Positions 4,888 through 39,631 of a stretch of DNA of 64,000 nucleotides are shown here, piece by piece. Source of the DNA: Patescibacteria group bacterium (GTDB lineage: Bacteria > Patescibacteriota > Minisyncoccia > Phycocordibacterales > UBA918); NCBI GenBank assembly GCA_019752815.1, contig JAIELQ010000005.1, forward strand, positions 49,625-113,624, read 5' to 3'. Numbering within the stretch: position 1 is the stretch's first letter; each line of letters opens with the position of its first letter. The notes below the pieces were generated by a model. That model was given only the letters and a program-made list of their open reading frames with translations. It did not search any database and was not told where the DNA came from. The position numbers were made by a program, and so were the translations under genes.

Positions 4888-6270
<1,383 letters not shown>

Positions 6271-10823: not shown

Positions 10824-11360
10824 ATGTTAACCAAAAAGGAAAAAATCCAATTACAAATCGTCATGACTAATGCTCATGCTGAGTTTGAGCAAGGTCTGTT
10901 GCGACATGCTCATTTTCGGGTGAGTGACAGTGGTCGGTGTGATGACTTGGTACAAGACACCTTTCTCAAAACCTGGGTGTACCTTATAAAGGCAGGCAAG
11001 ATATCTTCTATGAAACCTTTTCTGTATCACGTATTGAATTGCTTAATTATTGATGAGTACCGAAAAAAGAAAAGCGTATCACTTGATATATTGCTGGAAG
11101 CTGGATTTGAACCCGGATCGGATGATTTTGACAGAGTTGTAGACACTATTGATGGTAAGGCAGAGGTAGCTCTCATTATGACTCTGCCAGTAGCGTATCA
11201 AAAGATTATGAGTTTGCGCTACATAGATGACTTGTCACTCTCAGAGATTGCGCTGGAAACTGGTTTGACGAAAAATTTAGTAGCAGTAAAAACGCACCGT
11301 GGCATGGAAAAATTACGACAACTGTATGACGAGCGTTTTTCAAAAAAAGTTTTAGTGTAA
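10824..11360 (+). CDS. ECF-type RNA polymerase sigma-70 family factor
   Basis: Region 2 is VQDTFLKTWVYL. Region 4 HTH is LSLSEIALETGLTKNLVAVKTHRGMEKLRQ. Length is 178 aa. Confidence 0.8.
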   Translation: MLTKKEKIQLQIVMTNAHAEFEQGLLRHAHFRVSDSGRCDDLVQDTFLKTWVYLIKAGKISSMKPFLYHVLNCLIIDEYRKKKSVSLDILLEAGFEPGSDDFDRVVDTIDGKAEVALIMTLPVAYQKIMSLRYIDDLSLSEIALETGLTKNLVAVKTHRGMEKLRQLYDERFSKKVLV

Positions 11361-11438: not shown

Positions 11439-11840
11439 ATGCAAAACATCATCGATACTGCGATAAGTAATCCGCAATTCTCTACTCTGGTAACGGCCAT
11501 TAAAGCAGCTGATTTAGTGGAAACACTCAGTGGTGCCGGACCGTTCACTGTTTTTGCTCCAACAAATGAAGCTTTCAAAAAGATAGCCCCAGATACGCTC
11601 ACTGCGGTACTAGCAGATAAGGATAAGTTAACCAATATTCTGACCTATCACGTTGTGTCAGGAAAAGTAATGTCAGCTGATGTGATGAAGCTCACAGAAG
11701 CAAAAACTGTACAGGGTACAATGTTGGCCATTGATGCAACTGACGGAGTAACTGTAAATACTGCAAAAGTAACCTCAGCTGACATTGAATGCACTAATGG
11801 TGTCATTCATGTGATTGATACGGTATTAATGCCGGCATAA
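11439..11840 (+). CDS. Fasciclin (FAS1) domain protein
   Basis: FTVFAPTNEAFKK and HVVSGKV..TNGVIHVIDTVLMP are classic FAS1 motifs. Confidence 0.85.
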   Translation: MQNIIDTAISNPQFSTLVTAIKAADLVETLSGAGPFTVFAPTNEAFKKIAPDTLTAVLADKDKLTNILTYHVVSGKVMSADVMKLTEAKTVQGTMLAIDATDGVTVNTAKVTSADIECTNGVIHVIDTVLMPA

Positions 11841-14256: not shown

Positions 14257-14360
14257 CATTATCCTCGTTTTCAGGTACTGAAGCTTATCTGAGAAAAACT
14301 CTACACTAAATAATTTTGAAAGACAACAGTTCAAATTTTAGTTAACTTTTCTTTACAATA

Positions 14361-14383
14361 GCTCCCCAGGCAGGATTCGAAGC
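14361..14383 (+). repeat. Degenerate copy A of the tRNA-Asn 3' end (att-like)
   Basis: GCTCCCCAGGCAGGATTCGAAGC versus the tRNA 3' end GCTCCCCGGGCAGGATTCGAACC at 20410..20432. A roughly 60-nt imperfect palindrome follows (CTTTCGC...GCGAAAG). Confidence 0.65.
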
Positions 14384-14545
14384 TTACTTTCGCAAGTGAG
14401 TAAGGAATACAAAATTTACTTGGTTTTGAGTTACTAACTCAGCGAAAGAATATTTGCATACAGCTTCAGCACAGGTTGTCGCTCGCTTGTTTCTAAATCA
14501 ACAATATCACTGGATAAAATTAAGAAACTGCTTTCTGAGCTTACG

Positions 14546-14947
14546 TTACATAAACGCAGACAGTAGGAAGTACGCCACAATGGAGTTGATTACAAGACCA
14601 AGGACAAATGTAAAAGCAAAACTAAATGACCCCCTACTCATATGACTGCCAAGTTGTGACGTAAAGTAGAACAACATTCCTAACACCGAACAAACAATTA
14701 ATGCCTCTAGTTGAGAAATATCTATGATTGTGGCCTGCCAATAGTCACCCGCCATGTACTGTCTAGTTGTATATGCATTAGGACGACCATAGCCTAAAAA
14801 CACCCCTAACGTTGGATCTAATCGAATAAAAACAAAAAGTACAATGGCATATAAAAATGACCAAAAGAACCCGTTTTCTTTTTGTTTCGATATCCCTTTG
14901 AGTTGTTTATAAAAAAAGCAACAGATTACATAAGTAATTGCATGCAT
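14546..14947 (-). CDS. Hypothetical polytopic membrane protein (AT-rich gene)
   Basis: 133 aa with four hydrophobic helices. Local GC is clearly below the window average. Confidence 0.5.
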   Translation of the reverse strand: MHAITYVICCFFYKQLKGISKQKENGFFWSFLYAIVLFVFIRLDPTLGVFLGYGRPNAYTTRQYMAGDYWQATIIDISQLEALIVCSVLGMLFYFTSQLGSHMSRGSFSFAFTFVLGLVINSIVAYFLLSAFM

Positions 14948-15084
14948 ATTTAGGCACTATACGCTTCAAAGAAGAAGGGGTGTGGAGTCATAAGTTGATA
15001 TGTATATGCGTTCATATGTAAACAAAATGATTGCAATATTAATTATGTTAGCACGAATGGTTCGAACTCCGCCAAGGTACGTGG

Positions 15085-15170
15085 ATTTTGATAAGTAACT
15101 GGTCGCTAATTCAGAGAGAGTTGGATAGAAGCCGGATTATATTTGGTAATCATAGTTAAATATTTCAGAA
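15085..15170 (+). repeat. Direct repeat DR2 (partner of DR1)
   Basis: AACTGGTCGCTAATTCAGAGAGAGTTGGATAGAAGCCGGATTAT...TTCAGAACTAGAATTCAG. Confidence 0.6.
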
Positions 15171-15222
15171 CTAGAATTCAGTAAATGAAAAGGCCAGCAA
15201 AAAATCTGCTGGCCTCCAATGA

Positions 15223-15648
15223 TCAATCATTCAATGGTGCTGACACTGGTGTCCGGTATTCATACGCTAGGACATCAGCGGGCGGCTCTTCAATCGCCGT
15301 GTGGCGAATGAAGAGAACGCCATTCCGCAGCAGCATGTTCGGCCCTGCGCTACCTCGGTAGCGGCCAAACGAAACTGCAACAGCGCCGGCCTTTGCAAAT
15401 GCCTTGCACAGCTCGATCAGCAATCCTGTCGGCTTATTGTCTTCTGAGATATACTTTTCAATCTGACCATCCACATCGATGTGGGCCACACCGTGGTCTG
15501 AGCAATTCAACGCCTTGCTGTTATCACCCTTGAGGGTGATAGTGAGAAAAGGCTGTTTGAACGGCAACGGGTTGTCTGCATTTGCCGACATGTGCGGGTT
15601 ATACCGCGCCATAATCTTCTCCATAAAGTCACCTATCGCATTATCCAT
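15223..15648 (-). CDS. Hypothetical protein (GC-rich, cassette 2 cargo)
   Basis: 141-aa ORF. GC is roughly 58 percent versus about 45 percent in the window, suggesting foreign origin. No domain recognised. Confidence 0.5.
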   Translation of the reverse strand: MDNAIGDFMEKIMARYNPHMSANADNPLPFKQPFLTITLKGDNSKALNCSDHGVAHIDVDGQIEKYISEDNKPTGLLIELCKAFAKAGAVAVSFGRYRGSAGPNMLLRNGVLFIRHTAIEEPPADVLAYEYRTPVSAPLND

Positions 15649-15715
15649 CTGTCTTCTCCTTCTGTTTCTGAACCAAAAATACAGTAATACAAAATATAAA
15701 CCATGTCAATATAAA

Positions 15716-15738
15716 GCTCCCCGGGCAGGATTTGAAGC
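15716..15738 (+). repeat. Degenerate copy B of the tRNA-Asn 3' end (att-like)
   Basis: GCTCCCCGGGCAGGATTTGAAGC. Copies A and B share the GAAGCTT variant. Confidence 0.65.
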
Positions 15739-15767
15739 TTTTAGGTCCGTGTGTTTCTAAGTGGTGA

Positions 15768-18164
15768 TTACAATGCCCACTTCGGTCGACGGTAGTAGGT
15801 AAAGGCAAGTAACACACTAATAAATATCAAGGGTATAAGTAATCGCTGGCGAAAAGTATTGGTTACTGGGGTGTCTTGTGTGCCATCGTCAGCTTGGGCG
15901 ATATTGGTGCCGAGTATAGTTGGTAGACTATCAATAATAGTTTCAGTGGTGGTAGCTACTCCCAGCACAGTCGGGAGTGTGTCGTCAGTCAGAAAGCTAG
16001 CATTTGATTGCATCAAGAGTGGGTAGGTGAGGGCCGTGGGTAGATTAGTTGCACGGTAGAGAATTGTACCGTGGGCCAAATTCTGTCTCGACGCTACGTT
16101 ATTTTGCAGTAGGGTAGTATCGAGGGTGTAGGTGCCTGGATTAGCACCCCCCATAAAGGTAATCTCGTATAAAACGGTTATTTCCTCATAGGGCAGGAGA
16201 GTGCCAATGTCCCAGACCTCGGTTTGAATTATATTCCCAAGCTCGTCTCGTAAATTATCGGTGAGGCTTATGTTCATAAAGGTCTTGCTCGTTGGATTAT
16301 TGATGATGATGTGCTGCGGGGAGACTTCTCCTTGGTGTGTAATACTGCTGGTCGATAGACGATTAATTGTGATATTACTCAGATTAGTCATAGCGGGTGT
16401 ATCGGATAGATTTTTTAACACCGTATTTTTCTTGCTGGTATTAGAACCGCCACTACTAACTTTTTTACTGGCGTAAATTGTTCCGGTATCAGAATTGTCT
16501 TGTGTATTATTATCGTTTTCGTGTGAGGTTACATTAACGGTGTTAGTAATTTCTGTACCAGGGACCGTGTTACGAACTTTTGCTTGATATGATATTTGGC
16601 TTGATTCGCCTACTGCGAGTGGCTCGGGTAAGTTGAAGGAAATCGTTCCGTCACTTAGGGTTGTGTAGGTATGTGAGGAATCAATGATCGAGAGGTGTGC
16701 GGTATCAAAATCGTCACGAACGATGACGTTGTTGGCGATGGCGTCACCTTGATTGATGATGGTGTAGGTATAGGTAACTACGCTATCGTTTTTTATGGTT
16801 GCAGGAGTAGAAATCTCCTCACCAATCCAAAGGTCAGGTCGGCCAAAGGCGAGGTTGCCGGTAAAGTCGCCAAAGATATTAATTATAGCGAGTGTCCAAT
16901 TTCTTCCGATGACGGTGGCGTTAGCAACAGTGACCACATTGGCGCCAATCAATGCGTCACCGGTGGTAATCAGGGACGAATCTGCTCCGGTAATGGTATT
17001 TTGTCCACTGTTGGCAGTGAGGGTTGCATTGGTAGTGATAGCGGCGGTGTTGGTGGCGCTGACTGTACGTTGTGCCGCAGCAGTACTGCCCTGATTTGAG
17101 TTGGTGAGGTAGTATGAACCATCATCTCCTTTGATTACTTCTATCTCGGGAATTAATCCTTGAATTTCACCCAGCCAATCACCATGAACTTTGAGCATAA
17201 TAACCATTGAGTCACCACCAAGGAGGGCGCTGTTAATAGAATTAATAGTTTGAGTGACACTTTTGGCATTGCCGGTTAGGGTGGTAGTAACGTTACCGTC
17301 TACGGTGTTATTGCCAGTATTAGAATTAGACTCAATGTTGCTTGTTACTAAAGCTTGATTTTGAATATCGATATTGGTCGGAACGGTTGAGACCGCTGAG
17401 GTAAAAAAGTTATTTAGTCCAGGAAAAATAATATCACCCGTAACATCACGAAAGGCATTTACTGTGACTACCAAATAGTGTGAATCAATAAAGGTACTGT
17501 TAGCGATTGTGACGAGATTCAGGCCCGTAAATGCGTCGCCCGTTTCAATCAGAGCATTACCTAGATTTGTTTCCAGTTCGTTGTTCCCGGTAATCGATTC
17601 AAGGAAAATTGTATTATCGATTGTAGCGCCGTTTATTACGCCAACACTGACTGCGTCAGAAGATAAGCAGGTATGTAAATCGCAGGGGACGCTTGTGCTA
17701 CTTTGTGGACGGAAATCAAGCGCGTTAGTTTGGTTGTTGTGTAGCTGAGCAAAAATAATTTCACCTTGGGAATTAACAGAAGTGGTATTCACGACATTTA
17801 AAATATTAGCGGCAGCGAGCGCATCACCAGTAACGATACTGGTGGTAGTCGCTATGATTGCTGTTTCCGTGGTGGTTGCCTGTGCATCGCTTGTAGTAGC
17901 GGGGGTAGATTCGAGATCGCTCGTGGTAGCCACGCTTTCGCTACGCTCTTCGCTTGTCGTAGAAATCGGTTTTGTTACCTGAGGAGGGGTGTTAGTTACT
18001 ATATCCACAATGACGCTTGTTTCTGCTGGGTTTGTTTCTGTTTGTGACTGACCGGCTTCTGTATCTTCATCCGCATATACGGAGGTTGAAAATAGGGGAG
18101 TGCTGAGGAGAAGCATCAGGGCAGCAAATATTCCAGCGGCAAATTTTTTGATGTATGTTTTCAT
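15768..18164 (-). CDS. Large surface/adhesin-like protein (798 aa) with signal peptide and C-terminal TM anchor
   Basis: N-terminal signal peptide MKTYIKKFAAGIFAALMLLLSTPLFSTSVYA. Thr/Asn/Ser-rich beta-repeat body. C-terminal LLIPLIFISVLLAFTYYRRPKWAL is a hydrophobic anchor with a basic tail. Confidence 0.7.
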   Translation of the reverse strand: MKTYIKKFAAGIFAALMLLLSTPLFSTSVYADEDTEAGQSQTETNPAETSVIVDIVTNTPPQVTKPISTTSEERSESVATTSDLESTPATTSDAQATTTETAIIATTTSIVTGDALAAANILNVVNTTSVNSQGEIIFAQLHNNQTNALDFRPQSSTSVPCDLHTCLSSDAVSVGVINGATIDNTIFLESITGNNELETNLGNALIETGDAFTGLNLVTIANSTFIDSHYLVVTVNAFRDVTGDIIFPGLNNFFTSAVSTVPTNIDIQNQALVTSNIESNSNTGNNTVDGNVTTTLTGNAKSVTQTINSINSALLGGDSMVIMLKVHGDWLGEIQGLIPEIEVIKGDDGSYYLTNSNQGSTAAAQRTVSATNTAAITTNATLTANSGQNTITGADSSLITTGDALIGANVVTVANATVIGRNWTLAIINIFGDFTGNLAFGRPDLWIGEEISTPATIKNDSVVTYTYTIINQGDAIANNVIVRDDFDTAHLSIIDSSHTYTTLSDGTISFNLPEPLAVGESSQISYQAKVRNTVPGTEITNTVNVTSHENDNNTQDNSDTGTIYASKKVSSGGSNTSKKNTVLKNLSDTPAMTNLSNITINRLSTSSITHQGEVSPQHIIINNPTSKTFMNISLTDNLRDELGNIIQTEVWDIGTLLPYEEITVLYEITFMGGANPGTYTLDTTLLQNNVASRQNLAHGTILYRATNLPTALTYPLLMQSNASFLTDDTLPTVLGVATTTETIIDSLPTILGTNIAQADDGTQDTPVTNTFRQRLLIPLIFISVLLAFTYYRRPKWAL

Positions 18165-18263
18165 GAAAATATTTTGTAATGATAAATCCTGTCCTTAGAT
18201 ACCCTGACGAAGTAGCTTCGCAATGGTATCTAAAAACAGGGGGTCCTGTTTTTAGAGTAAACC

Positions 18264-19364
18264 TTAGTTACGGACGATTCGGGTCATGGTACGACCTGAG
18301 GTAGTCACAATAGTAGCCAGCGAGTCAGAGACACCGGTATTAACCGCGCCGCCATTTCCACCGTTACCACCAGTACCGCCGGTGCCAGCAGTTGAATCAT
18401 TTGATTCAGATCCACTACCACTTGTGTTACCTCCGTCACCACCACGCTCTGCCCGTGCACCACGAGAGGTATTGTCTCCGGTTTGGGCATTCACCGCGAC
18501 GGCGTTACCGACATTAGCTGTATTGGTGTTTGCTGCAGCAATGTCATCTTCGTCATCAACATGAGTGCGAGTGTATTCAATTGATAGGTTGTCGTATTCG
18601 ACAAGACTAATGTCTGAAGTAAGTGTTACATCATCAGAAATGGCGTTATTTGACGATGAATTTGATTCAGATGAATTGTCGTACTCACTCGCTGATTCTG
18701 ATTCAGTGTTGTTTGACTCTGATTCAGAGTTTGATGAACTAGATTCTGAATTAGAGCTTGAACTTTCGTCAGTGTCATCTGATGAATCACTATCAGATGA
18801 AGAGTCAGACGCTTCATTTTCAGAAGCTGATTCTGAGTTAGCTTCCTCACTTTCAGATTCACTTCCTGTTACAGAAGTACTTTCTGATTCTTGTTGTGAA
18901 GAGTTTTCATCGTAGTCTTGAACATATGATGTAGATTCATCATAGGTCATGCCAGTTTCAGATTGGTATGACAATGTTTCATCATAATTTTCGTCGTTTC
19001 CGTTATTGTCTTCGATAACGGTATCGGTAGTGTTAACATCATTGCGAATGTCAGCAGTGGCGATAGCATCACCGGTCGTGATGCTGCCACCATTTCCGCC
19101 ATTTCCACCATCGCCACCGTCGCCGGCAGTACTACTGCCGTCATTAGAACCGCTGACGTTACCACCTTCACCACCACGATTCGCCCGAGCGCCTCGAGAA
19201 GTGTTTCCACCAGTGTTGGCTCCAACTGTTACTTGGTTAGTAACCGTTGCTTCGTTGTCGTTAGTAACGGTTATTGCTCCAGCCAAAGCTGTTTGTCCAC
19301 CGACAGCCACCATACTTAATATGGCGAGTGTCGCAGTAGATTTTGCTAAAATGTTTGTTCTCAT
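18264..19364 (-). CDS. Secreted polyanionic low-complexity protein with an internal duplicated Gly/Asn domain
   Basis: Signal peptide. Two similar Gly/Asn-rich segments (..GGNTSRGARA.RGG.GGN.SGS..STAG.GG.GGNGGNGG..) flank an extremely Ser/Asp/Glu-rich stretch (SESESEEANSESASENEASDSSSDSDSSDDTDESSSSNSESSSS...). Confidence 0.6.
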   Translation of the reverse strand: MRTNILAKSTATLAILSMVAVGGQTALAGAITVTNDNEATVTNQVTVGANTGGNTSRGARANRGGEGGNVSGSNDGSSTAGDGGDGGNGGNGGSITTGDAIATADIRNDVNTTDTVIEDNNGNDENYDETLSYQSETGMTYDESTSYVQDYDENSSQQESESTSVTGSESESEEANSESASENEASDSSSDSDSSDDTDESSSSNSESSSSNSESESNNTESESASEYDNSSESNSSSNNAISDDVTLTSDISLVEYDNLSIEYTRTHVDDEDDIAAANTNTANVGNAVAVNAQTGDNTSRGARAERGGDGGNTSGSGSESNDSTAGTGGTGGNGGNGGAVNTGVSDSLATIVTTSGRTMTRIVRN

Positions 19365-19574
19365 AATGTGTAAGATTATTTATTAATTTGTCGAAGCAAA
19401 ATTGTTTGATATAAAAAAATAACAAATTACCTCCAGACAAAACTAATACCGCGGTGGTCAAATGTAGATTACAAACTGAGTTCAAAAGTTGCTCACTAGG
19501 CAACAGAAAAATAGATACGTCATTAATTTAAAAAAAATTACCACCCGAGTTTCATCGGGTGGTTTTGATAATAA

Positions 19575-20165
19575 TTACTCTGATTCTGTGATGTCTTGCA
19601 CAGATGGTGTTTTGAGTTTTATCTTTTGTTTAATTTCGTCACCTTTGGCAAACTGTATGTAAATTGTTTCGCTGGCGGCTCGTTTGCTTATGCCTTCAAT
19701 TGCGGTCGCTTCGTCGGGACTCGCCTCCATTGCTTCAACATTCAGTTCCCATTTTCGGCGCAGAAATTTCAACTTCCGTAACGTAATTAAACGCTCAATA
19801 AGGGTGACCACTTCTTTAGCACTACGTGGCACACTGATGCCTGCAGGCGTATTTCTCCAACCTAACGTGCCAGTTGCCCAGGTAACGGAACGTTGTTTGC
19901 CGTTGTCGGTGAGCGTTGTTTTATGAGTGCGTGCGTACTCTTTTAGAATGGTGAATTTTTCAGCAAACTCGTCTGACACTTTTGCTGCCTTTTGGTCAGC
20001 TACCACCACCAATACATTGATGGCTTGATTCAGTTCAACCTGCTGCTGCTCAAGTTTGAGCTTCAGTTTCTCTAGTTCTCCCAACAACTGGGCAGCTTCA
20101 GCATCGTTTGTCGGTATAGGGAAGGTATGTTTTTTGGCCACGATAGGCTCCTTTGAAATGAACAT
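19575..20165 (-). CDS. Phage Mu Gam-like host-nuclease inhibitor family protein
   Basis: N-terminal coiled coil (LLGELEKLKLKLEQQQVELNQAINVL) then the Gam-like core KTTLTDNGKQRSVTWATGTLGWRNTPAGISV..AKEVVTLIERL. Confidence 0.6.
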   Translation of the reverse strand: MFISKEPIVAKKHTFPIPTNDAEAAQLLGELEKLKLKLEQQQVELNQAINVLVVVADQKAAKVSDEFAEKFTILKEYARTHKTTLTDNGKQRSVTWATGTLGWRNTPAGISVPRSAKEVVTLIERLITLRKLKFLRRKWELNVEAMEASPDEATAIEGISKRAASETIYIQFAKGDEIKQKIKLKTPSVQDITESE

Positions 20166-20296
20166 TTCTTATATAAGGCCGATTGTGTTTTGAGATGATT
20201 GCAGGTTGTTTTCTTCTTGGGTAGGATTCGATTCCTACAGAATCTATGCAGCGTTTGGATATTTTGTGCGCAAGCTACAAAATATCTCAAAACGCT

Positions 20297-20398
20297 TTTC
20301 GAATCCTGACGCAAGGCACGTGTAGTGCCTTGCTCCCGGGGAGCGTGTGATCATAGGTACAGTAAAAGCCACAAGCTGATGCTTGTGGCTTTTACTGT
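20297..20398. repeat. Palindromic structure next to the tRNA-Asn 3' end
   Basis: Perfect 18-bp inverted repeat ACAGTAAAAGCCACAAGC-TGAT-GCTTGTGGCTTTTACTGT at 20361..20398. At 20297..20346 there is an inverted copy of the tRNA 3' motif (CGCTCCCCGGGAG...CAGGATTCGAA on the minus strand), split by the hairpin GCAAGGCAC-TACAC-GTGCCTTGC. Confidence 0.6.
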
Positions 20399-20410
20399 AT
20401 GATTACTACG

Positions 20411-20743
20411 CTCCCCGGGCAGGATTCGAACCTGCGACCAATCGATTACACGAATCTCCTAATTTCTTAGAGGGGTGGACTATATCATCACCGGTTGTAT
20501 TTCTACACGACGGTGCAAGGCGCTTCGAATGCATTTTTGCATCCTACTCCCGTAAGGGATAGTCTCTGAACCTTCAATTGGATTTCTCCAAAAGCTTGGC
20601 TGCTGATTGCCCACAGCACACGAATGTCTGTTTCGGGGTTCCAGCAATTCACCTTGTTTGCAATAACGATTTCTCGATAAGGCTGCTATTTTGAACTTTG
20701 TCCACTGTTACAGTCGACTGCTCTACCGCTGAGCTACCGAGGA
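20411..20743 (-). tRNA. tRNA-Asn(GUU) interrupted by a group I intron. Exon 1 is 20710..20743, the intron is 20449..20709, exon 2 is 20411..20448.
   Basis: Exons on the minus strand read UCCUCGG-UA-GCUC-AGCGGUA-GAGC-A-GUCGA-CUGU / UAA-UCGAU-UGGUC-GCAGG-UUCGAAU-CCUGC-CCGGGGA-G. The acceptor stem, D arm and discriminator G73 match bacterial tRNA-Asn (compare E. coli UCCUCUGUAGUUCAGUCGGUAGAAC...). The intervening 261 nt ends in G and carries the group I R element GUUCAGAGACUA, the S element AUAUAGUCC, and P/Q-like elements AAUUGCUGGAA and AAUCAGCAGCC. Confidence 0.8.
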
Positions 20744-21322: not shown

Positions 21323-21494
21323 GTGACTAGCTTATGTGGTTATACAAAATTAGTAAAGAGGGATTGTAATGAAAGGAGTGAAGATACGGCATAAAGGCAG
21401 TTGCGCAAAATGTGGCCTTTGCGTACAATACTATAAATACTTAATCAAGTTAAGTATATTACCAACTGACCAAATTAAAAAACTTAAACTTCGT

Positions 21495-22148
21495 ATGAAC
21501 AACTATGTAATTGCAGCCATTATTGGGGTCATTATCATTGCGGGTATTGTATACGCATCACAAAATGATGAAGTGTCTATGCAAGAAAAAGTACAGATGG
21601 ACCAAGAGGCTAAAATGAAAATGGAAGCCGAAGCTCGGGAAAAAGCCGCTATGGAAGCTAATGCAAACATGGATGCAAAAACCAACACTGAAGCAGGGGT
21701 AATGGTTGGAGGAGCAATGATGTTACCAACACTCGACATTGTTGATAATGCAGCCAAAGCCAGTAATGTAACCACTGTAGTCACTGCAGTAAAAGCGGCT
21801 GGTTTGCTTGACACCCTTAAAGGTCCTGGACCATTCACTGTTTTTGCACCAACAAACGATGCGTTTGCTAAGTTACCAGCAGGAACAGTTGATTCGTTAC
21901 TAAAGGCCGATATGAAAGCTGACCTCACAAGTATCTTGACTTATCACGTGGTCGCGGGACGCTACACCGCTGCGGATCTAAAAGATGGTATGACACTAAA
22001 GACGGTAAATGGAGCTACACTTAAAGTAAGTAATGTTAACGGAGTCGTTAAAATTAATGGATCTTCAACTGTGCAAACAGCTGATGTGATTTCTAGTAAC
22101 GGAGTAACTCATGTTGTTGATACGGTTTTGATGCCACCAAAGATGTAA
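21495..22148 (+). CDS. Membrane-anchored fasciclin (FAS1) domain protein
   Basis: ORF 21369..22148. The likely start is the Met at 21495, followed by a TM helix (YVIAAIIGVIIIAGIVYA). FAS1 motifs FTVFAPTNDAFAKLP and HVVAGRY..TNGVTHVVDTVLMP. Confidence 0.85.
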   Translation: MNNYVIAAIIGVIIIAGIVYASQNDEVSMQEKVQMDQEAKMKMEAEAREKAAMEANANMDAKTNTEAGVMVGGAMMLPTLDIVDNAAKASNVTTVVTAVKAAGLLDTLKGPGPFTVFAPTNDAFAKLPAGTVDSLLKADMKADLTSILTYHVVAGRYTAADLKDGMTLKTVNGATLKVSNVNGVVKINGSSTVQTADVISSNGVTHVVDTVLMPPKM

Positions 22149-28225: not shown

Positions 28226-29725
28226 TTAAAACTCATCGAGATATTTAATGTCTGCACCGAGACTGGCTAATCGTGCAACGAGGTTTTCATAACCGCGGTT
28301 GATACTGTAGATATTACGCAGGACCGAGCGGCCGGATGCGCCCAACATCGCAATCAAGAGAATCGTAGCGGGACGCAAGGCGGGCGGGCAGATGAGCTCA
28401 GCTGATTTTAGCTGTGTTGGTCCGGTGATGTAGATACGGTGAGGGTCGGCCAAAACGGTGTCAGCACCGAGTTTTTCGAGCTCGGTAAAATAAATGGCGC
28501 GTTTTTCATACATCCAATCGTGAATGAGGGTTTGACCAGCTGCCTGGGTCGCAATCACCGCGTAGAAGGGGAGGTTGTCGGCATTGAGTCCAGGGTAGGG
28601 CCTGGAGTGTACTTTTTCTGGTGAAGCGTGTAGTTTGCTTGGTTTGATTTTTAAATCTACCAGTTTGGTGTATTCATTGACTGCTAGGTATGGTTTTGAT
28701 GTGCTGTATTGCAGACCCATTTTTTCGAGTACCAACAGTTCAAGCTCAAGAAACTCAATTGGAGCTCGGGTAATAGTGATGGCAGAATTAGTAACAATTG
28801 CAGCTGCAATAAAAAACATACTGTCGGTTGGATCCTCGGCCAGGGTGTATTCAATATCGACATTGATAGTACGAACACCGGTAACGGTTAGTGTGGTGGT
28901 GCCGATACCTTCAATTTGCACCCCAAATAATTTTAAGAAGACACAGATTTCCTGCACCATGTAGTTGGCACTCGCATATTTGATGACCGTTGTGCCTTCG
29001 TTAAGTGCTGCTGCGAACAGGACATTTTCAGTCACGGTGTCCCCGGATTCGTAAAGAATAATTTCAGACGGTTTTTTAAGTACGGTTGCGACTCTGAATT
29101 CTTTTTCTGTGGTTTCTATACTGACACCATAGTGTTCAAGGGCGTAAAAATGAGGGCGAACGGTGCGACTGCCGAGTTTGCAACCGCCTGATTGCGGAAG
29201 TGCAAAACTCGGCATAGTGTGAATCAGTGCACCAATAAACATTACAATACTGCGGGTTTTGCGGGCAGCATCAACATCGATTTTTTTGAGATCAAATTTT
29301 TTGGGTGGGGTGATCGTAATGGTACTGCCGCTCCAAACAATATGCATGCCGATACTCTGTAGCACCTCGATAATGCGGTGCACTTCCTCGATACGAGGCA
29401 TTCTGTGGAGGGTGGTGACGCCGCGGTTTAATAGTGACGCACATAGAAGTCCCACTGCACCATTTTTACTGGTATTAGTTTCAATGGTGCCAGATAGCTT
29501 CTTGTTCCCATTGATTTCGACATTAACGGTCCCAGGTGAGAGGGTGATGAGATTTTTACCGAGTGCGGTCCCGATTTTTTTCAGCATCTCGGCACTGATG
29601 TTTTGGGTGCCTGATTCAAGACGAGCAATAGCGCTTTGTGTAGTTTTAAGTTTTTTAGCGAGTTGTGTTTGGGTGAGTCCGACTGACTCTCTCAAATCAG
29701 CAATTCTGTTTCCAATATTTTCCAT
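28226..29725 (-). CDS. murA: UDP-N-acetylglucosamine 1-carboxyvinyltransferase fused to an N-terminal XRE-type HTH domain
   Basis: Residues 1-60, IADLRESVGLTQTQLAKKLKTTQSAIARLESGTQNISAEMLKKIGTALG, form an HTH_XRE. The remaining roughly 430 aa has the MurA/EPSP fold (SKNGAVGLLCASLL and related motifs). 499 aa in total. Confidence 0.85.
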   Translation of the reverse strand: MENIGNRIADLRESVGLTQTQLAKKLKTTQSAIARLESGTQNISAEMLKKIGTALGKNLITLSPGTVNVEINGNKKLSGTIETNTSKNGAVGLLCASLLNRGVTTLHRMPRIEEVHRIIEVLQSIGMHIVWSGSTITITPPKKFDLKKIDVDAARKTRSIVMFIGALIHTMPSFALPQSGGCKLGSRTVRPHFYALEHYGVSIETTEKEFRVATVLKKPSEIILYESGDTVTENVLFAAALNEGTTVIKYASANYMVQEICVFLKLFGVQIEGIGTTTLTVTGVRTINVDIEYTLAEDPTDSMFFIAAAIVTNSAITITRAPIEFLELELLVLEKMGLQYSTSKPYLAVNEYTKLVDLKIKPSKLHASPEKVHSRPYPGLNADNLPFYAVIATQAAGQTLIHDWMYEKRAIYFTELEKLGADTVLADPHRIYITGPTQLKSAELICPPALRPATILLIAMLGASGRSVLRNIYSINRGYENLVARLASLGADIKYLDEF

Positions 29726-33156: not shown

Positions 33157-34740
33157 ATGTCGGAATTGGCAGCTACACTTCATCAATTTGCAACCGTTGA
33201 TAGTAATCAGTTTGTGATCAATGAGCGTAAGGGTAGTGTATTGCGCGCAGTCGAAAAAAGTTTTTCATTCAGAGAGTTTAATCCAAAAACGAGCGTCCCG
33301 CTGTCACTTACAGAATTATCAACCATTATGCACTTTACCGGCAATGGTATTACATCCTCGCCACAATATAAGCAGTCTGGAGCGATGACTGCAGCAGCGC
33401 CTACTGATACACCTACAGAAGGTACACTTTTGGGAGTCAATAAACACCGTAACACCGAAAAGGAGATTTATATGACTGAGCGTGATCGCATGCGACATTT
33501 TTACGTGATTGGTCAAACGGGTACTGGTAAATCAGTATTGCTTAAAAATGTCATCATTCAAGATATTTTAAATGGTGACGGTGTTTGTATGATAGACCCG
33601 CATGGAACCGACATCGTAGACGTACTAGGCTCAATTCCACCAGAGCGTGAAAAGGATGTAATTTACTTTGATCCATCGGATCTAGAGAATCCAATTGGGC
33701 TTAACATGCTGGAGTTTGATGAACAAAAACCAGAGCAGAAAACATTTGTGGTTAATGAATTATTTTCAATTTTCCAAAAATTGTATGGAGGAAATCCAGA
33801 ATCAATGGGGCCAATGTTTGAACAGTATTTTCGTAACGCAACGTTGCTCGTGATGGAAGATCCAGATTCAGGGAATACCCTAATGGATATTTCACGGGTA
33901 ATGGCTGACGCCAAGTATCGGCGGATGAAATTAGAGAAAGCTAAAAATCCGGTCGTGGTACAGTTTTGGCGTGAGATTGCGACTAAAGCCGGTGGTGAAG
34001 CTTCACTCGAAAACATAGTGCCCTATATCGTATCAAAATTCGACGTGTTTACCGCCAACGACTACATGCGTCCAATTATTGGTCAGCAAAAATCGGCTTT
34101 CAACTTTAGACAGATTATGGATGAGAAGAAAATCTTACTTGTGAATCTTTCTAAAGGCCGTTTGGGTGAAATTAATGCCAATCTTATTGGTATGATTATT
34201 GTAGGTAAAATCTTGATGGCAGCATTGTCTCGAGTAGATAATGAAGCGATGGACTTTCCACCGTTCTATTTGCATATTGATGAGTTCCAAAACGTATCAA
34301 CTCCATCAATTGCTTCAATTTTGTCAGAAGCTCGAAAGTATAAATTGAGTCTCACTATGGCTCATCAATTTATTGCGCAACTTGATCAAGATATTAAAGA
34401 TGCGGTATTTGGTAACGTGGGCTCAGTCGCAGCATTTCGAATTGGATCTGAAGATGCTCATTTTTTGGAGAGTCAGTTTGCTCCTGTATTTAGTGCAAAC
34501 GACCTAATGAATGTGCCAAATTGGAACGCTATGATACGGATGTTAGCTAATGGTACTCCAACAAAACCATTTAGTATTGGTACCATGCCACCTTTTAAAG
34601 CGGATATTACCAGAGTGGCAGAACTAAAAGCTATGTCCGCGAAAAGGTACGGACGTCCACGCGCCGAAGTTGAGGCTGAAATCGCTGCCCGCTATGCCAA
34701 GGAGCCTGTTTCGCTCCCCCCGCTAAGTGCTATGATATAG
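33157..34740 (+). CDS. FtsK/HerA/TraG(VirD4)-superfamily P-loop ATPase (soluble, 527 aa)
   Basis: Walker A HFYVIGQTGTGKSVLLKN. Walker B FYLHIDEFQN. Downstream ARKYKLSLTMAHQFIAQLD resembles the RKYG..L.TQ motif of HerA/TraG/VirB4-type ATPases. No TM helices. Confidence 0.65.
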   Translation: MSELAATLHQFATVDSNQFVINERKGSVLRAVEKSFSFREFNPKTSVPLSLTELSTIMHFTGNGITSSPQYKQSGAMTAAAPTDTPTEGTLLGVNKHRNTEKEIYMTERDRMRHFYVIGQTGTGKSVLLKNVIIQDILNGDGVCMIDPHGTDIVDVLGSIPPEREKDVIYFDPSDLENPIGLNMLEFDEQKPEQKTFVVNELFSIFQKLYGGNPESMGPMFEQYFRNATLLVMEDPDSGNTLMDISRVMADAKYRRMKLEKAKNPVVVQFWREIATKAGGEASLENIVPYIVSKFDVFTANDYMRPIIGQQKSAFNFRQIMDEKKILLVNLSKGRLGEINANLIGMIIVGKILMAALSRVDNEAMDFPPFYLHIDEFQNVSTPSIASILSEARKYKLSLTMAHQFIAQLDQDIKDAVFGNVGSVAAFRIGSEDAHFLESQFAPVFSANDLMNVPNWNAMIRMLANGTPTKPFSIGTMPPFKADITRVAELKAMSAKRYGRPRAEVEAEIAARYAKEPVSLPPLSAMI

Positions 34741-34745
34741 GTACT

Positions 34746-37502
34746 ATGAAAGAGGGCTATCCATCAAATAAATTGGATGTGGCGTATCGAGGCGACTTCG
34801 AAGACCCTGCGCGGACTGCTTTTTCTAATGCACAGTTGCCGCCCCAAAGAGTGACACTCGAAGATTTTGCAAAATATCCGTTTGGTCCTTCTGAGATAAC
34901 TTCAAAAAGTGATTACGTAAAACATGTGCTCACCTGGTTTTCAAAAGCACTCATCGATGCTGGATATAAACCCAATGAAGTTGATAATCTCATTCGTAAA
35001 TCATTAGATACTATTGATTTTAATAGACCGGAAGCGATGTACGTAGCTGATATCAATCGTATTATTCAAAATTTTTATAAGGCAGCTCCTGGTAAAAATA
35101 GTTCGACTGAGGCAACTGAGGTTCCAGCTCCAGTTGCTGCTGGGCAAGCTGAGATTATTGAGACTTCTGTTCAGTCAACACCAACACCAATAACGCCTGT
35201 TGTACCGCAACAGAGTGAAACGCACATTTCTCCTTTTGCACAAAAAGTTGAACCGTTTCGGTCGGCAGATGATGGTGTGCCCAAAGAGGTCACAATTAAT
35301 ACTAGAACTCCAGATCTGAGTTCGGTTTCGAGTGTAGAAATACAACAAGAAGAAGAAACTCTGCCACTCGCTACAGAATTTGATGATCGAGCGCAAGAAT
35401 ATGCCGAATACGGTAATCGTTCAATAAAAATAACACCTTCTTTCCCTGAAGCTACTAACGTGACAGCGGTTAAAAAAGATAATTTCGAAAATCCTCCTCA
35501 GGTGACTCGTAATGAACAGTTAGCTTCGACACCGCTCATTCTAACCCCTGAAATGCGGGTTGTTGATCCGAATGAACCAATTGTGCTTGAGACAGTGAGT
35601 GCTGATGACGAGGTCGCGTTGGAGAAGCGGAATGTTGGTTTAGAATATCAAAGCAAGCTTGATGCGCTCAACACACAAGCGTTTAATCATGAAGCGTACA
35701 TAGAATTTGTGTTTGATGTGCACACGGGTCTTAGACATGAATATGATGGAGTAATCAATTCAGCGCGAAATAACCTAAAGCGATTTGATGGCTTTTATGC
35801 ACCGTCCACAATTGAAAAACAAGCACTGCAATTATTATCAAGTCTCCAAGGTCAGTACGCCAAGATGCAGAATGTACAATCTGATTACGGTCTTATTCGA
35901 GGCGCACTGACTGAGAAATTAAGTGAGAGTCCTACCGACGCAATCGAAGCCGAAATTAAGTCTTTGTCACAGAGTTATCTTGATGCTACACAAAAACTTT
36001 TTGCAAACATTAGCAAGCTTGAAGGTTTGATAGAAGAAGTGAAACAAGAAGAAAAACCGTCAGTAGCAGAAGTGTATCGGGCACAATTTGAAAAACTGCA
36101 GACTGAAGGTAATCAGGTGTTGCGGTCACTATCAGCCAGTCACCCCTTGTATGAGCGGCTAAAGACAGCTGTAGAAGTTGATTTACAAAAAATTATTGCA
36201 CAAGCGTCTGTTGAAAATGGGGGAGATAAAGCGGTACTTGAAAACTCCTCGAACTTTATAGCGAGAAGGGATCAAATTAAAGAGCTGATTTCATTTATCA
36301 AAAAAGAACAAGAGTATCAAGATTTCTTTGCGCGTGCTCGGGCGCGGGTGCAAAAACTTGAATCACAATTTGAAATAATTCCGACGGGAGATAAAGGAAT
36401 GCAGGTAAAAACAATCCTTGCAGAAAATATTGTAAAAATTAAACAGGCTCTTAGTGGAACTGATTCACAAACCGCCACCGTAGGCGTGCTTGAGAACTTG
36501 AATCAACAAAAAAGCATTATTGAGATGTTACTTCGTGATTCAGAAGAGTCAATTTCGTCATTACCGCAGAGTGAGACTGTCGTACAACAAGAAGTGGGGT
36601 CAAGGGTGTTAACTGATGCTGAGTTGATTGCCGTTGTTGAAAAAACTCCGCTTGTTGAAAATATGGCAGAAGTGCAGGATCGCTATCAGATGCAGCGGGC
36701 AGAGATTGAAAAATATCTAACGTACCAACGTGAGCAACAGAGCAGGGAACGTTTCTCTGGACCCGTGTATGAAAAAGCAAAACGACTAGCAGGCATGCTA
36801 CATTTGGGTACGATTGGTAAAGCGGCTGCGGTACTTTTGACGCTCGCTGGACCAGCTGGTGTCTCGAGTCAAAAATCAGACCTGAATATTCTTGGTGATC
36901 TCAACATGTCAGCAGGTGTGTTAGCGCAACCGGATTTTGATTACGCCGCTATTTCAGAATTTCTCCGGACGGCTGAGGGATTTAGGGTGATTTCTGAAAC
37001 AGTAGCACCGGCAGTGTCAACTGTTGCTCCAGAGTTACCAAAAGTACCAGTGTCAGTAGAGACTGTGCCCGGTGTGATTTTGCCAGACATGGTCAGTCGT
37101 TCAAATGACGAAACCCAGGATATGCCATCAGAAATCTTTAGTGATTTAGCTGATGAGGTACCAAAAGACAAGGGTATTGAATTTGCAAGTCCAAATAAAT
37201 CTAATGTTCCAGAAGCTTTACGTAAGCCATACAAAATAAATTTTGGTGATAAATTCTGGGATATTAATGAGGGAAAAACGCTCGCTGGTAAATTGCCGGT
37301 CATGTCACAAATAAATCCTTCCTTAAAACAAGCACTCATAGACCGTATGCGCGATAAAATTAATAATGACAGAGCACTCAGAGACGCTATTGGCGGGTTT
37401 GGTAAAAATGCTGATCAGCTCCGTACCGGAGAATTAATGAATCTCGACAAACTTAATGAACTGGGGGTGAGTGTAGCCGCTGACTACAGTTATCTAAAAT
37501 AA
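34746..37502 (+). CDS. Giant hypothetical coiled-coil protein (918 aa)
   Basis: Long predicted helical or coiled-coil regions with one internal hydrophobic segment (AAAVLLTLAGPAGV). No enzymatic motif recognised. Start is 6 nt after the ATPase stop. Confidence 0.55.
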   Translation: MKEGYPSNKLDVAYRGDFEDPARTAFSNAQLPPQRVTLEDFAKYPFGPSEITSKSDYVKHVLTWFSKALIDAGYKPNEVDNLIRKSLDTIDFNRPEAMYVADINRIIQNFYKAAPGKNSSTEATEVPAPVAAGQAEIIETSVQSTPTPITPVVPQQSETHISPFAQKVEPFRSADDGVPKEVTINTRTPDLSSVSSVEIQQEEETLPLATEFDDRAQEYAEYGNRSIKITPSFPEATNVTAVKKDNFENPPQVTRNEQLASTPLILTPEMRVVDPNEPIVLETVSADDEVALEKRNVGLEYQSKLDALNTQAFNHEAYIEFVFDVHTGLRHEYDGVINSARNNLKRFDGFYAPSTIEKQALQLLSSLQGQYAKMQNVQSDYGLIRGALTEKLSESPTDAIEAEIKSLSQSYLDATQKLFANISKLEGLIEEVKQEEKPSVAEVYRAQFEKLQTEGNQVLRSLSASHPLYERLKTAVEVDLQKIIAQASVENGGDKAVLENSSNFIARRDQIKELISFIKKEQEYQDFFARARARVQKLESQFEIIPTGDKGMQVKTILAENIVKIKQALSGTDSQTATVGVLENLNQQKSIIEMLLRDSEESISSLPQSETVVQQEVGSRVLTDAELIAVVEKTPLVENMAEVQDRYQMQRAEIEKYLTYQREQQSRERFSGPVYEKAKRLAGMLHLGTIGKAAAVLLTLAGPAGVSSQKSDLNILGDLNMSAGVLAQPDFDYAAISEFLRTAEGFRVISETVAPAVSTVAPELPKVPVSVETVPGVILPDMVSRSNDETQDMPSEIFSDLADEVPKDKGIEFASPNKSNVPEALRKPYKINFGDKFWDINEGKTLAGKLPVMSQINPSLKQALIDRMRDKINNDRALRDAIGGFGKNADQLRTGELMNLDKLNELGVSVAADYSYLK

Positions 37503-37867: not shown

Positions 37868-39631
37868 ATGCGTATGACAGCTGATGCTCGTTCTTTGGGG
37901 GTAACCGTACCTGAACAGTTTGACTTCGATTCTCAAGCGGGAATTTTGTTTGTGTTACGTGCTATTAGAGCAGCAGATTTAAGTGGTGCCGATAAAAACA
38001 GTCTTAAAGATTTAGTCTTTCTCTACAATACAGGTGGAAAAGATGAATCGGTAAAGAAAAAATTAGCTGATACTCTGAGTGTACATGGAGTTACTCCGGC
38101 TACAGTTTTACTCGAGGTGCCCAAGCAGGCTGCAGTTCCGAGAGAAGAAGCGAAACCATTAACTACTCCTGGTTTTATGGGTGGACGATTGACACCAGTA
38201 TTTCATCCACCAGTCGTAGCAACTCCTGCCGCCCCAATACCGGTTACAGCACCAGCACCTGTGTCAGTTGTACAAGTTCCTCAAGTTGATGTTCCGGTGA
38301 TACAAATTAAACCCGAAACCCAACCAAACGTTGTAGTACCTAAAGTAGAAAAAGTTACTCCTGTTGCACCAGTAGCTCCGCCAGTTCGACCAATAGTACC
38401 AGTGCCACAGCCGGTAACTCCAGTGCCAAACGTGACGCCTGAAGCAGTCAATATCGAGGTTAAAAAAGATATCCCAACACCTGTTCAGACTCCGGTTGAG
38501 GTGGCGCCTGCCTACGTCGCGAGTCGTATGGAGCGTATCCGAGTTATTAAATCTGATGTTAACGCTCGAGTAGGTAATCCGGTGAATCTTGTAGATGTCG
38601 ACAATGCGCTTGGTCGCGAATATATGAGCGCGCTGCTGGAAGCAATGAAGCTGCTCAGTAGTGCCAGTGAACAAGAGTCAACTATTGCGATGAACCGATT
38701 AGAGACAGTATACGCCCAGGTGCTGTTACTGCTTGATGCCCAGCAAAAAACCGAATCCGCTGTTGTGTCACCCGTTACGCCCCCGGCACCAGTGATGCCA
38801 GTTGTTCCAGTTACTCCCGTGCCACCAGTACTGCCGGTGGTGCCAGTTGTACCTGTAGCCCAGCCAGCAGCTCAAACACCAATGCCTGAGGTCGTAGCAC
38901 CGGTTTCAATTCCTGTGGTGTCGAGTCCGGTTGTGCCGTCTCCGGTGGTAGTACCACAGCCAGTTTTACCATCGATTGTCGAGCCCGCACTTGATGTGAT
39001 TGTTCGCAGTAAAGTATCTGATAAACCGACTACACCACCGGTAGTGAGCAATTGGGAAACGGCTGCTCATGCTCCAGTCGATATGGTTTCAAGTGTGGGG
39101 GCTACAGTCACACCGCCTGATGTAGTAATGGTAAACCGTATGAGTACTCCACCAGCGGAACCATTGCGTCCGGTAGTGTCACCAGTAGCACAGGTGTACC
39201 AGCCGGAAGTTACTCCGTCTGTAGGTGAAGTACAGCCACTGCGAGCCATCACCGAATTACCAACTGCTGACGAGGTGAGTGCGGTAGAAGCTATGAGTAG
39301 TAATCCTCTGTACACCAAAGATATTGATGCCGGTTTGGATCAATTGCTCAGTGAGTGGGCAATCTTCAAAAAAAGTGGTTTGTTTGGAACGGGACCGAAA
39401 GGGCGTGAACATCCGCTCTATATCAAAATATCACCGATGCAAGTTCCACTTATCCTCTCTGGTCGTTTTGAAGGTTCGACCCAGGAAATTAAACAAAGTA
39501 TTACTGATTACATGAATGGTTGGCGGTATGAACAGGGAATTGTGTACGAACCAAACGAAACGTTTGATCAGTATCTCAGACGCGTTATCAGGCATATCTT
39601 AGATTTGCAGAAAACAAAACGTCGTTCATAA
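37868..39631 (+). CDS. Pro/Val-rich repetitive protein with a conserved C-terminal globular domain (587 aa)
   Basis: Central PV-rich repeats (PVTPVPNVTPEAV, PVMPVVPVTPVPPVLPVVPVVPVAQP). C-terminal domain ..LYTKDIDAGLDQLLSEWAIFKKSGLFGTGPKGREHPLYIKI.. Confidence 0.55.
   Translation: MRMTADARSLGVTVPEQFDFDSQAGILFVLRAIRAADLSGADKNSLKDLVFLYNTGGKDESVKKKLADTLSVHGVTPATVLLEVPKQAAVPREEAKPLTTPGFMGGRLTPVFHPPVVATPAAPIPVTAPAPVSVVQVPQVDVPVIQIKPETQPNVVVPKVEKVTPVAPVAPPVRPIVPVPQPVTPVPNVTPEAVNIEVKKDIPTPVQTPVEVAPAYVASRMERIRVIKSDVNARVGNPVNLVDVDNALGREYMSALLEAMKLLSSASEQESTIAMNRLETVYAQVLLLLDAQQKTESAVVSPVTPPAPVMPVVPVTPVPPVLPVVPVVPVAQPAAQTPMPEVVAPVSIPVVSSPVVPSPVVVPQPVLPSIVEPALDVIVRSKVSDKPTTPPVVSNWETAAHAPVDMVSSVGATVTPPDVVMVNRMSTPPAEPLRPVVSPVAQVYQPEVTPSVGEVQPLRAITELPTADEVSAVEAMSSNPLYTKDIDAGLDQLLSEWAIFKKSGLFGTGPKGREHPLYIKISPMQVPLILSGRFEGSTQEIKQSITDYMNGWRYEQGIVYEPNETFDQYLRRVIRHILDLQKTKRRS

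Follow-up and report, generated by a model that had tools for sequence, protein, structure and literature searches.

Cell surface structures can be built from an anchored protein and a secreted partner. The long and short chaplins of Streptomyces, the CsgB and CsgA proteins and the TapA and TasA proteins of Bacillus are systems of this kind, with partners that share a module in the first two, and the SlaA and SlaB proteins of Sulfolobales form a two-component surface layer (S-layer) with a membrane-anchored stalk subunit. The subject of this analysis is a pair of genes from a Patescibacteria group bacterium of the class Paceibacteria, located in a stretch of 64,000 nucleotides (contig JAIELQ010000005.1 of assembly GCA_019752815.1) that is termed ‘the window’ hereafter. 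The small gene (18264-19364, minus strand) codes for 366 amino acids (aa) and the large gene (15768-18164, minus strand) codes for 798 aa. We put at about even the chance that this pair encodes a two-component cell-surface structure of the Paceibacteria, composed of an anchored large protein and a secreted small protein. Patescibacteria account for much of bacterial diversity, and their envelopes and host contacts are almost uncharted at the molecular level. This gene cassette, which is class-wide and easily recognized and has three unannotated parts (a head domain, a secreted paralogue and an RNA hairpin), is a concrete candidate for a major surface structure, and it supplies handles for antibodies, proteomics and labelling in cryo-electron tomography.

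For the large protein, the closest described systems are the fibrillar adhesins with CLIPPER/DUF11 domains (PF01345; Costa et al. 2025, PMC12617251; PDB 9IFR), in which CLIPPER is a CnaA-like stalk domain that in some members carries no isopeptide bond. The large protein shares with these adhesins a signal peptide, a distal domain that is not part of the stalk, a CnaA-like immunoglobulin-like (Ig-like) domain and a C-terminal anchor. This layout is apparent in an AlphaFold2 (AF2) model made with 40 homologues, for which the mean predicted local distance difference test score (pLDDT) is 76 and 401 residues score at least 90. The signal peptide occupies residues 1-31 (18072-18164; this and all other features of the two genes are on the minus strand), with a cleavage site read by eye at SVYA|DED and a helix modelled at residues 4-21. 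It is followed by an acidic tip rich in Thr and Ser (residues 32-104, 17853-18071; modelled as disordered from 22 to 103) and by the head domain (residues 105-445, 16830-17852), which was delimited from a repeat alignment and the AF2 model. The CLIPPER/DUF11 Ig-like domain (residues 446-565, 16470-16829; defined by Pfam and fold) and a second Ig-like beta-sandwich domain seen in the model (residues 596-705, 16050-16379) come next. A disordered stalk segment (residues 706-770, 15855-16049; modelled disorder 709-770) leads to a transmembrane helix (residues 772-791, 15792-15851) and a basic tail (residues 792-798), and the sequence after the helix reads YYRRPKWAL. C-terminal anchors are also found in the homologues, most of which have both the helix and the basic tail.

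The large protein is 100% identical to an NCBI entry named ‘DUF11 domain-containing protein [Patescibacteria group bacterium]’, and so its DUF11 annotation was already known, and its Ig domain is of a known kind. Pfam recognizes only residues 453-563, as DUF11/CLIPPER (PF01345, E 2e-12, 47.9 bits with a gathering cutoff of 24.6 bits), and 38 of the 40 homologues match the same family. A first-pass annotation of this DNA, made from its letters alone, had proposed a search for this domain and a structure prediction; AF2 models were made of both proteins, and that of the large one is all-beta. A scan with NCBIfam yielded no significant match for either protein. The CLIPPER domain of the large protein has a CnaA-like Ig fold that can be superposed on the solved CLIPPER domain, and it holds a conserved acidic loop with the pattern E-x-D-N-N-x-x-D-N-x-D. 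Asn and Asp residues are conserved near its C-terminal strand among the 40 homologues. An isopeptide bond is nevertheless unlikely in this domain because no Lys is conserved in the first strand of these homologues (columns 445-470; K458 is present in 6 of 40), and the assignment of an isopeptide-crosslinked Ig domain was dropped for lack of a conserved Lys-Asn triad. No recognized sorting motif (LPXTG, PEP-CTERM, PGF-CTERM and similar) was found before the transmembrane helix, and the only sorting-type match in NCBIfam, to exosortase XrtS, is far below threshold (E 0.011, 15.6 bits with a cutoff of 145). The stalk is otherwise variable, yet the motifs VLG(A/T) and [IVT]A-x-A-[ADEQ]-[DE]-x-G recur 20 to 50 residues before the helix, and the window version of the second motif is NIAQADDG. 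Its A-x-A element may mark a place where the protein is processed or sorted.

In several respects the large protein departs from the CLIPPER adhesins. Those proteins carry long tandem arrays, whereas the stalk described here has only one CLIPPER domain and one other Ig-like domain joined by disordered linkers. It has no conserved isopeptide Lys, its distal head is made of repeats that lack a Pfam family, its anchor is a plain transmembrane helix, and a secreted paralogue is encoded with it. The head consists of one partial and three full copies (3.5 in total) of an all-beta module of approximately 95 aa, which are evident by repeat alignment. Each module is marked by the motif N-x-A-x-V-x-N-x-V-x-V-x-A-x-TG-x-N, followed by TGDA and N-x-x-N-T, and then by two more strands. 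The pLDDT scores of the head are mostly above 90, with the exception of a disordered loop at residues 155-169. A near-invariant pair of Cys residues (C161 and C166) is located in this loop. No Pfam family matches the head in any of the 40 members examined.

The head is the best-conserved part of the large protein. Mean identity reaches 44% in the head and 19% in the tip and stalk, and 29% of the head columns are at least 80% conserved. This distribution bears on the proposal, also made in the first-pass annotation, that the protein mediates attachment to host cells or other surfaces. According to this explanation, the head would bind a ligand and the small protein would be an independent exported protein, such as a binder of cations or minerals. 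Several points favour it: the succession of signal peptide, distal head, CLIPPER/DUF11 stalk and anchor is the layout of a fibrillar adhesin (PMC12617251), Paceibacteria are often episymbionts, PG_binding_1 domains are present in some of the large-protein homologues, and highly expressed secreted proteins with Ig folds or peptidoglycan-binding domains have been proposed as attachment factors (PMC10936435). The acidic linker of the small protein, with its net charge of -39, would suit a cation binder. The conservation of the head is a poor fit, as is a stalk of only two Ig domains without a conserved isopeptide Lys, and most of the small-protein family lacks the acidic linker. The ligand-binding tips of host-specific adhesins are usually their most variable part. 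Furthermore, independent action of the two proteins is hard to reconcile with the kinship of the small protein to the head and with the near-constant co-encoding of the pair. Given a conserved head and an obligatory paralogous partner, a host-specific adhesin is disfavoured, and we judge the attachment explanation as a whole to be rather unlikely. A search with HMMER of 1.84 billion cluster representatives found the head in 1254 of them at E <= 1e-3, and the best 150 of these 1254 proteins have an identical overall architecture. This is a large family without a Pfam model, and it deserves one even if its members prove to be plain adhesins.

An argument for a two-component structure comes from the relationship between the two proteins. 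When the small-protein family was compared with the head by using hhalign, the match was highly significant (probability 97.9%, E 4e-13), with the two modules of the small protein aligned on head residues 263-419. On this profile comparison, the small protein and two of the head repeats are paralogous. Its signal peptide (residues 1-28, 19281-19364) ends at ALA|G. Module M1 (residues 29-120, 19005-19280), delimited by homologue alignment, is separated from module M2 (residues 263-366, 18267-18578), which ends in the family-conserved C-terminus TRIVRN, by an acidic linker of Ser, Asp and Glu that was defined by composition (residues 121-262, 18579-19004). Each module carries an inserted loop of approximately 30 aa with the pattern GGxGGxGG and lacks the last two strands of the head repeat. 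Both the two-module design and the Gly-rich loops are strongly conserved across the family, and none of the 36 members examined has a Pfam match. Polyglycine-II and RTX-like elements were considered as identities for these loops, and neither is claimed here.

Much of the original description of the two proteins has held up. The 798-aa protein does have a signal-peptide-like N-terminus, a body rich in Thr (15.4%) and Asn (9.1%) that is modelled as all-beta, and a C-terminal helix with a basic tail, although it is too short to be called giant. The 366-aa protein indeed has two homologous modules rich in Gly and Asn (37% and 31% for the two residues combined) around an acidic stretch. Both reading frames are real, as supported by homologues for the small gene and by the NCBI match for the large gene, and each product carries a Sec-type signal peptide, in agreement with the export that had been predicted. 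The acidic stretch was said to be a nearly pure run of Ser, Asp and Glu; it is rich in these residues, but its purity was overstated, since they account for 61% of its 142 residues and 70% of its core (residues 146-240). Nor is it a repeat, because Tandem Repeats Finder detects no tandem repeat in this low-complexity sequence. The linker is free of Lys and Arg. Most members of the small-protein family are 210-280 aa long and have a short linker containing CxC, and the long acidic linker is present only in the clade of the window. On this comparison, the linker between the modules has expanded into a polyanionic stretch in this clade only. Cation binding by the acidic linker is plausible.

The Ser-Asp repeat regions of the staphylococcal Sdr and Clf surface proteins are polyanionic spacers of the cation-binding type, and they resemble the linker of the small protein in being long, rich in Ser and acidic residues, free of Lys and Arg, disordered and exported. 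However, the linker has no dipeptide repeat and no tandem repeat at the DNA level, and it is limited to one clade of its family. Furthermore, it is flanked on both sides by folded modules of a secreted protein, whereas the Sdr and Clf regions connect a ligand domain to a wall anchor.

The partnership of the two genes is conserved far beyond the window. In 70 of 86 loci, the large gene is immediately preceded on its own strand by a two-module small gene, and most of the exceptions are interrupted by a contig end. Beyond this pairing, no family of neighbouring genes is shared by more than 12 of 88 loci. At least 151 loci with a relative of the large protein are present in GTDB species-representative genomes, all of them from Patescibacteria, and the named lineages are Kaiser-, Taylor-, Nomura-, Zambryski-, Giovannoni-, Yonath-, Wildermuth- and Lloydbacteria. 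Among the nearest relatives (loci L001 to L004), amino-acid identity is 80-92% for the small protein and 67-70% for the large protein. DNA homology with L001 and L004 begins approximately 90-117 nucleotides upstream of the small gene and continues through the intergenic region into the large gene, with the nearby gene for a Mu Gam-like protein excluded. Thus, the promoter region, the small gene, an intercistronic hairpin and the large gene are co-inherited across the class, and the pair is one bicistronic operon inherited across the Paceibacteria. The cassette is ancient and chromosomal. In the more distant clade of the cassette (L032 to L085), a third open reading frame (ORF) of approximately 110-190 aa is located between the small and large genes (for example, at 7235-7730 in L055 and 7031-7483 in L049). 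Its product combines a signal peptide with a half-module (..V.N.VSVSA.SGG..), and it also carries the motif VNGE.VED and a C-terminal helix that is hydrophobic or amphipathic. These features make it a possible third subunit, and a third secreted half-module protein fits a multi-subunit assembly.

The hairpin between the two genes is itself a distinctive element. In the window, the sequence TCTAAAAACAGG-ACCC-CCTGTTTTTAGA (18229-18256, minus strand) lies approximately 13 nucleotides past the stop codon of the small gene. Across relatives, the form AAAACAGG-loop-CCTGTTTT is nearly confined to the interval between the two genes of the cassette. Specifically, 30 copies of the motif AAACAGG-N3-9-CCTGTTT are present in 1.32 Mb of retrieved sequence; 27 of these copies are between the two genes, 10-56 nucleotides past the small stop codon, and two more are just upstream of truncated large genes. 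The helix has 12-13 base pairs, and in an alignment of 24 related loci 94.5% of the cells of the 13-pair helix are paired, compared with 40-56% for slid controls. Seven inner pairs are invariant, and four outer pairs show compensatory changes (24 cells, a count reached by none of 500 shuffles). The G-U pairs of the helix are on the sense strand. No Rfam family matches the hairpin at the gathering threshold. We read the hairpin as an RNA element that would set the ratio of small to large product, as a leaky terminator or as a stabilizer.

This arrangement also bears on a different role for the small protein, which might act as a negative regulator, decoy or chaperone that caps the exposed beta edges of the head. 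Such a role would agree with modules that are homologous to the head repeats but truncated, with the last two strands missing, and with the strict co-encoding of the two genes. However, the gene order and the position of the hairpin after the small gene suggest that the small product would be made in excess, as expected for a major subunit, and the conserved bivalent design and Gly-rich loops exceed the needs of a simple cap. We therefore view a capping function as very unlikely.

We favour instead a two-component structure, which could be assembled as follows. The large protein is held in the membrane by its C-terminal helix, with the stalk and two Ig-like domains carrying the head and the acidic tip projecting beyond it. 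The secreted small protein would dock onto, or co-assemble with, the anchored head through homotypic contacts between modules. By acting as a leaky terminator or mRNA stabilizer, the hairpin would place the small subunit in excess of its anchor. Together, the large protein's acidic tip and the small protein's polyanionic loop would make the surface highly negative and hydrated, and the outcome would be a strongly anionic, hydrated outer layer or fibril that serves as a constitutive component of the envelope rather than as a host-specific adhesin.

Comparison with the known partner systems brings out both likenesses and differences. As with the chaplins and CsgB/CsgA, a cell-bound protein and a secreted protein are derived from one module and encoded together, and the small protein is presumably the more abundant partner, as in systems of the chaplin, curli and TasA type. 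Unlike in those systems, there is no evidence of amyloid, no dedicated genes for secretion or assembly are conserved nearby, and the module is much larger (60-95 aa). Pfam families for Chaplin, Curlin_rpt and Peptidase_M73/TasA have no match among the 36 small-family members or the 40 heads. The pair resembles SlaA/SlaB in being a two-gene operon with lineage-wide conservation and a subunit that combines beta-sandwich domains, a stalk and a C-terminal transmembrane helix. It differs in that the anchor belongs to the larger subunit, which has a module in common with its partner. Proteins of S-layers have been reported in Patescibacteria (bioRxiv 10.1101/2024.05.28.596244), and the present family may or may not be among them. 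The head domain, its secreted paralogue, the class-wide operon and the intercistronic hairpin were not found in the literature searched. At its most ambitious, the proposal would describe an unrecognized envelope structure of Paceibacteria, built from a new beta module, in which an anchored large protein templates the polymerization or docking of an excess of its small paralogue with a stoichiometry set by the hairpin and with a polyanionic loop that binds cations, possibly forming the surface layer or fibrils of ultra-small groundwater bacteria. We offer this extended version tentatively and think it improbable in its entirety.

Several considerations weigh against a two-component structure. 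Physical contact between the small and large proteins is something we infer from their sequences. The model of the small protein is of low confidence (mean pLDDT 55; the modules score 62-77 and the linker is disordered), and the hairpin could alternatively be a protein-binding site or a plain terminator. Moreover, a fibrillar adhesin would have precisely this order of signal peptide, head, Ig stalk and anchor. A fold search of the PDB and BFVD produced no match to the head, but it was made with the full-length model of the large protein, and so a distant match could have been masked by the Ig domains. A search of PDB sequences with both family profiles returned only Gly-linker artefacts and no solved relative. 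The highly expressed secreted proteins of methanogen-parasitizing Paceibacteria (PMC10936435) could not be tied to the family, for which neither expression nor proteomic data came to light.

The setting of the pair raises a separate question, since the first-pass annotation regarded the two genes as cargo of an island associated with a tRNA gene. According to that explanation, the pair would be the horizontally acquired cargo of a mobile island integrated at a tRNA-Asn gene, and the Gam-like gene would be its phage-derived marker. The tRNA-Asn(GUU) gene (20409-20743, minus strand) is the left boundary of the segment that holds the pair. It is split by a group I intron of 261 nucleotides (20449-20709; Rfam RF00028, 81.6 bits), placed by splice-junction reasoning in the anticodon loop between tRNA positions 35 and 36, and this interruption explains why ARAGORN misses the gene. 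An intron-less tRNA-Asn with identical exons, which reads CUGUUAA, is present in L089, L092 and L094. Given that L026 and L088 carry the intron, it is polymorphic within the lineage. A scan of metagenomes for the 3' exon of the tRNA recovered two short loci only, which are informative on the identity of the tRNA but not on the sequence that follows it.

On the other side of the pair is a degenerate direct repeat of the 3' end of the tRNA, termed att-like copy B (15715-15738, minus strand), which matches at 21 of 24 nucleotides and lies 30 nucleotides past the stop codon of the large gene. The pair is indeed located between copy B and the Gam-like gene (19575-20165, minus strand; PF07352, E 5e-17; phrog_491), both of which are real. 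A further copy (C, 14360-14383) with three mismatches to the tRNA 3' end lies 1.36 kb beyond copy B. Counting the tRNA 3' end itself (20409-20432), the 24-nucleotide core is present three times when none is expected by chance. Two small ORFan genes (141 and 133 aa) are located between copies B and C. An inverted copy of the tRNA-Asn 3' end that is interrupted by a hairpin (CGCTCCCCGGGAG-hairpin-GTCAGGATTCGAAA; 20297-20345, minus strand) is present past the tRNA and its terminator. This inverted copy is kept in relatives, at approximately 60-110 in L088 and 105-165 in L089, at 5013-5059 and 6454-6500 in L094, and at 13855-13875 in L026. In L089 and L094, the inverted copy and a direct att core are approximately 70-110 nucleotides apart and form an imperfect palindromic unit that bounds small cassettes. 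The unit recalls the arrangement of integrons, and no integrase is nearby.

Relatives that share the chromosomal backbone of the window (identities of 75-78% for a MurA-like protein, 79-91% for the deformylase encoded by def and 74-81% for MarR) differ in what they carry near the tRNA. The window order is def-fmt-S30AE-fasciclin-MarR-tRNA-Asn-Gam-small-big-copyB-141aa-133aa-copyC, where ‘small’ and ‘big’ denote the genes of the pair. In L047 the order is def-fmt-S30AE-small-big-tRNA-Asn, and in L026 it is sigma-small-big-219aa-def-fmt-S30AE-tRNA-Asn, so that the pair lies on the other side of the tRNA in both. L092 reads MarR-tRNA-Asn-141aa'-AhpC-glyoxalase-Gam-(1393-aa Pel9A-like beta-helix protein)-def-176-288-YkuD-Zn_peptidase, and L094 reads MarR-tRNA-Asn, three further att cores with insertion sequence (IS) and aminoglycoside phosphotransferase (APH) cassettes, and then Gam-def-180-289-YkuD-Zn_peptidase. 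The nearest relatives, L001 and L004, have the order small-big-178-...-YkuD-Zn_peptidase, to which L001 adds a 286-aa gene where L004 has TrmB and a 181-aa gene instead. The zone past the tRNA (2263-6586 in L094, 5971-8000 in L092 and 14360-20432 in the window) is a hot spot of variation. The zone of L094 holds four att cores, an IS with DDE and rve transposases and the APH gene, and that of L092 holds the AhpC and glyoxalase genes. The right-handed beta-helix protein of L092 (8690-12871, minus strand) follows Gam in place of the cassette, which suggests that one large surface protein can stand in for another at this site.

Much of this would suit an island: the pair lies between a tRNA and a 21/24 direct repeat of its 3' end with a second repeat beyond; L092, whose deformylase and MarR are 91% and 81% identical to those of the window, joins its tRNA to an 81% homologue of the 141-aa ORF in what looks like an empty site; at that locus in L094 there are four att cores along with IS and APH cassettes; neither L092 nor L094 has the pair in this region, and in L092 a different giant beta-helix protein follows Gam; and L026, L047 and the window each place the pair differently with respect to the tRNA. 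Since the pair is missing from this site in L092 and L094, it is not core and invariant locally. Other expectations for an island were disappointed. Pfam and PHROGs scans found no integrase or recombinase among the ORFs between 6.9 and 22 kb, and the GC content of the segment (0.43-0.45) is that of the window, which is flat at approximately 0.44. The head has no relatives in IMG/VR or in phage or plasmid records, and Gam has none in viral contigs. Homologues of Gam that are 60-73% identical occupy syntenic positions in L090, L092 and L094, and its position in L092 and L094 indicates that it is a backbone gene and not cargo. Gam also has its own strong terminator (19540-19563) and is transcribed separately from the pair. 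The cassette is found in at least 151 species-representative loci, and in other clades it has a stable synteny of its own, such as a tRNA-Val approximately 3-4 kb upstream in seven loci. Because the order in L047 is small-big-tRNA-Asn, copy B could be what remains of a former tRNA location instead of an attR site.

The island explanation is supported in part: its bounds and variable region stand, and no integrase, unusual composition or phage or plasmid relatives were found. Known tRNA-linked islands and tandem arrays of att cassettes likewise have a tRNA at one end, degenerate repeats of its 3' end and variable content, and the several att copies of L094 strengthen the likeness to such arrays. 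Unlike tRNA-linked islands, the segment in the window holds a backbone gene (Gam) and a class-wide operon, and no integrase was found. The cassette sits in a rearrangement hot spot next to tRNA-Asn, and we regard its acquisition as mobile cargo as improbable. Rather than independent cargo, the two proteins are paralogous partners encoded by an operon that is conserved across the Paceibacteria. Look-ups of the exact MarR and 798-aa proteins for presence or absence at the strain level found nothing on record.

The window otherwise holds ordinary chromosomal genes, including those for ATP synthase, MreB, Fpg, fmt, def and the MurA-like protein. The last of these (28226-29725, minus strand) joins an HTH_3 (XRE-type) domain at its N-terminus to an EPSP-synthase/MurA-like enzyme, and this fusion is kept in L026 and L047 at 75-78% identity. 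A sigma factor of the extracytoplasmic function type (Sigma70_r2/r4; 10824-11360, plus strand) has a 52%-identical homologue in L026 (6020-6532, minus strand), where it stands divergently beside the small gene. In the window, this sigma factor gene is followed by a gene with a fasciclin domain (11439-11840), and a second fasciclin gene (21369-22148) adjoins MarR. Finally, a gene for a VirD4/TraG-like coupling ATPase (T4SS-DNA_transf, TraG-D_C; 33157-34740, plus strand) is followed by two ORFs without a Pfam match (34746-37502, 918 aa; 37868-39631, 587 aa), and the three may form a module for type IV secretion or a conjugation-like process.

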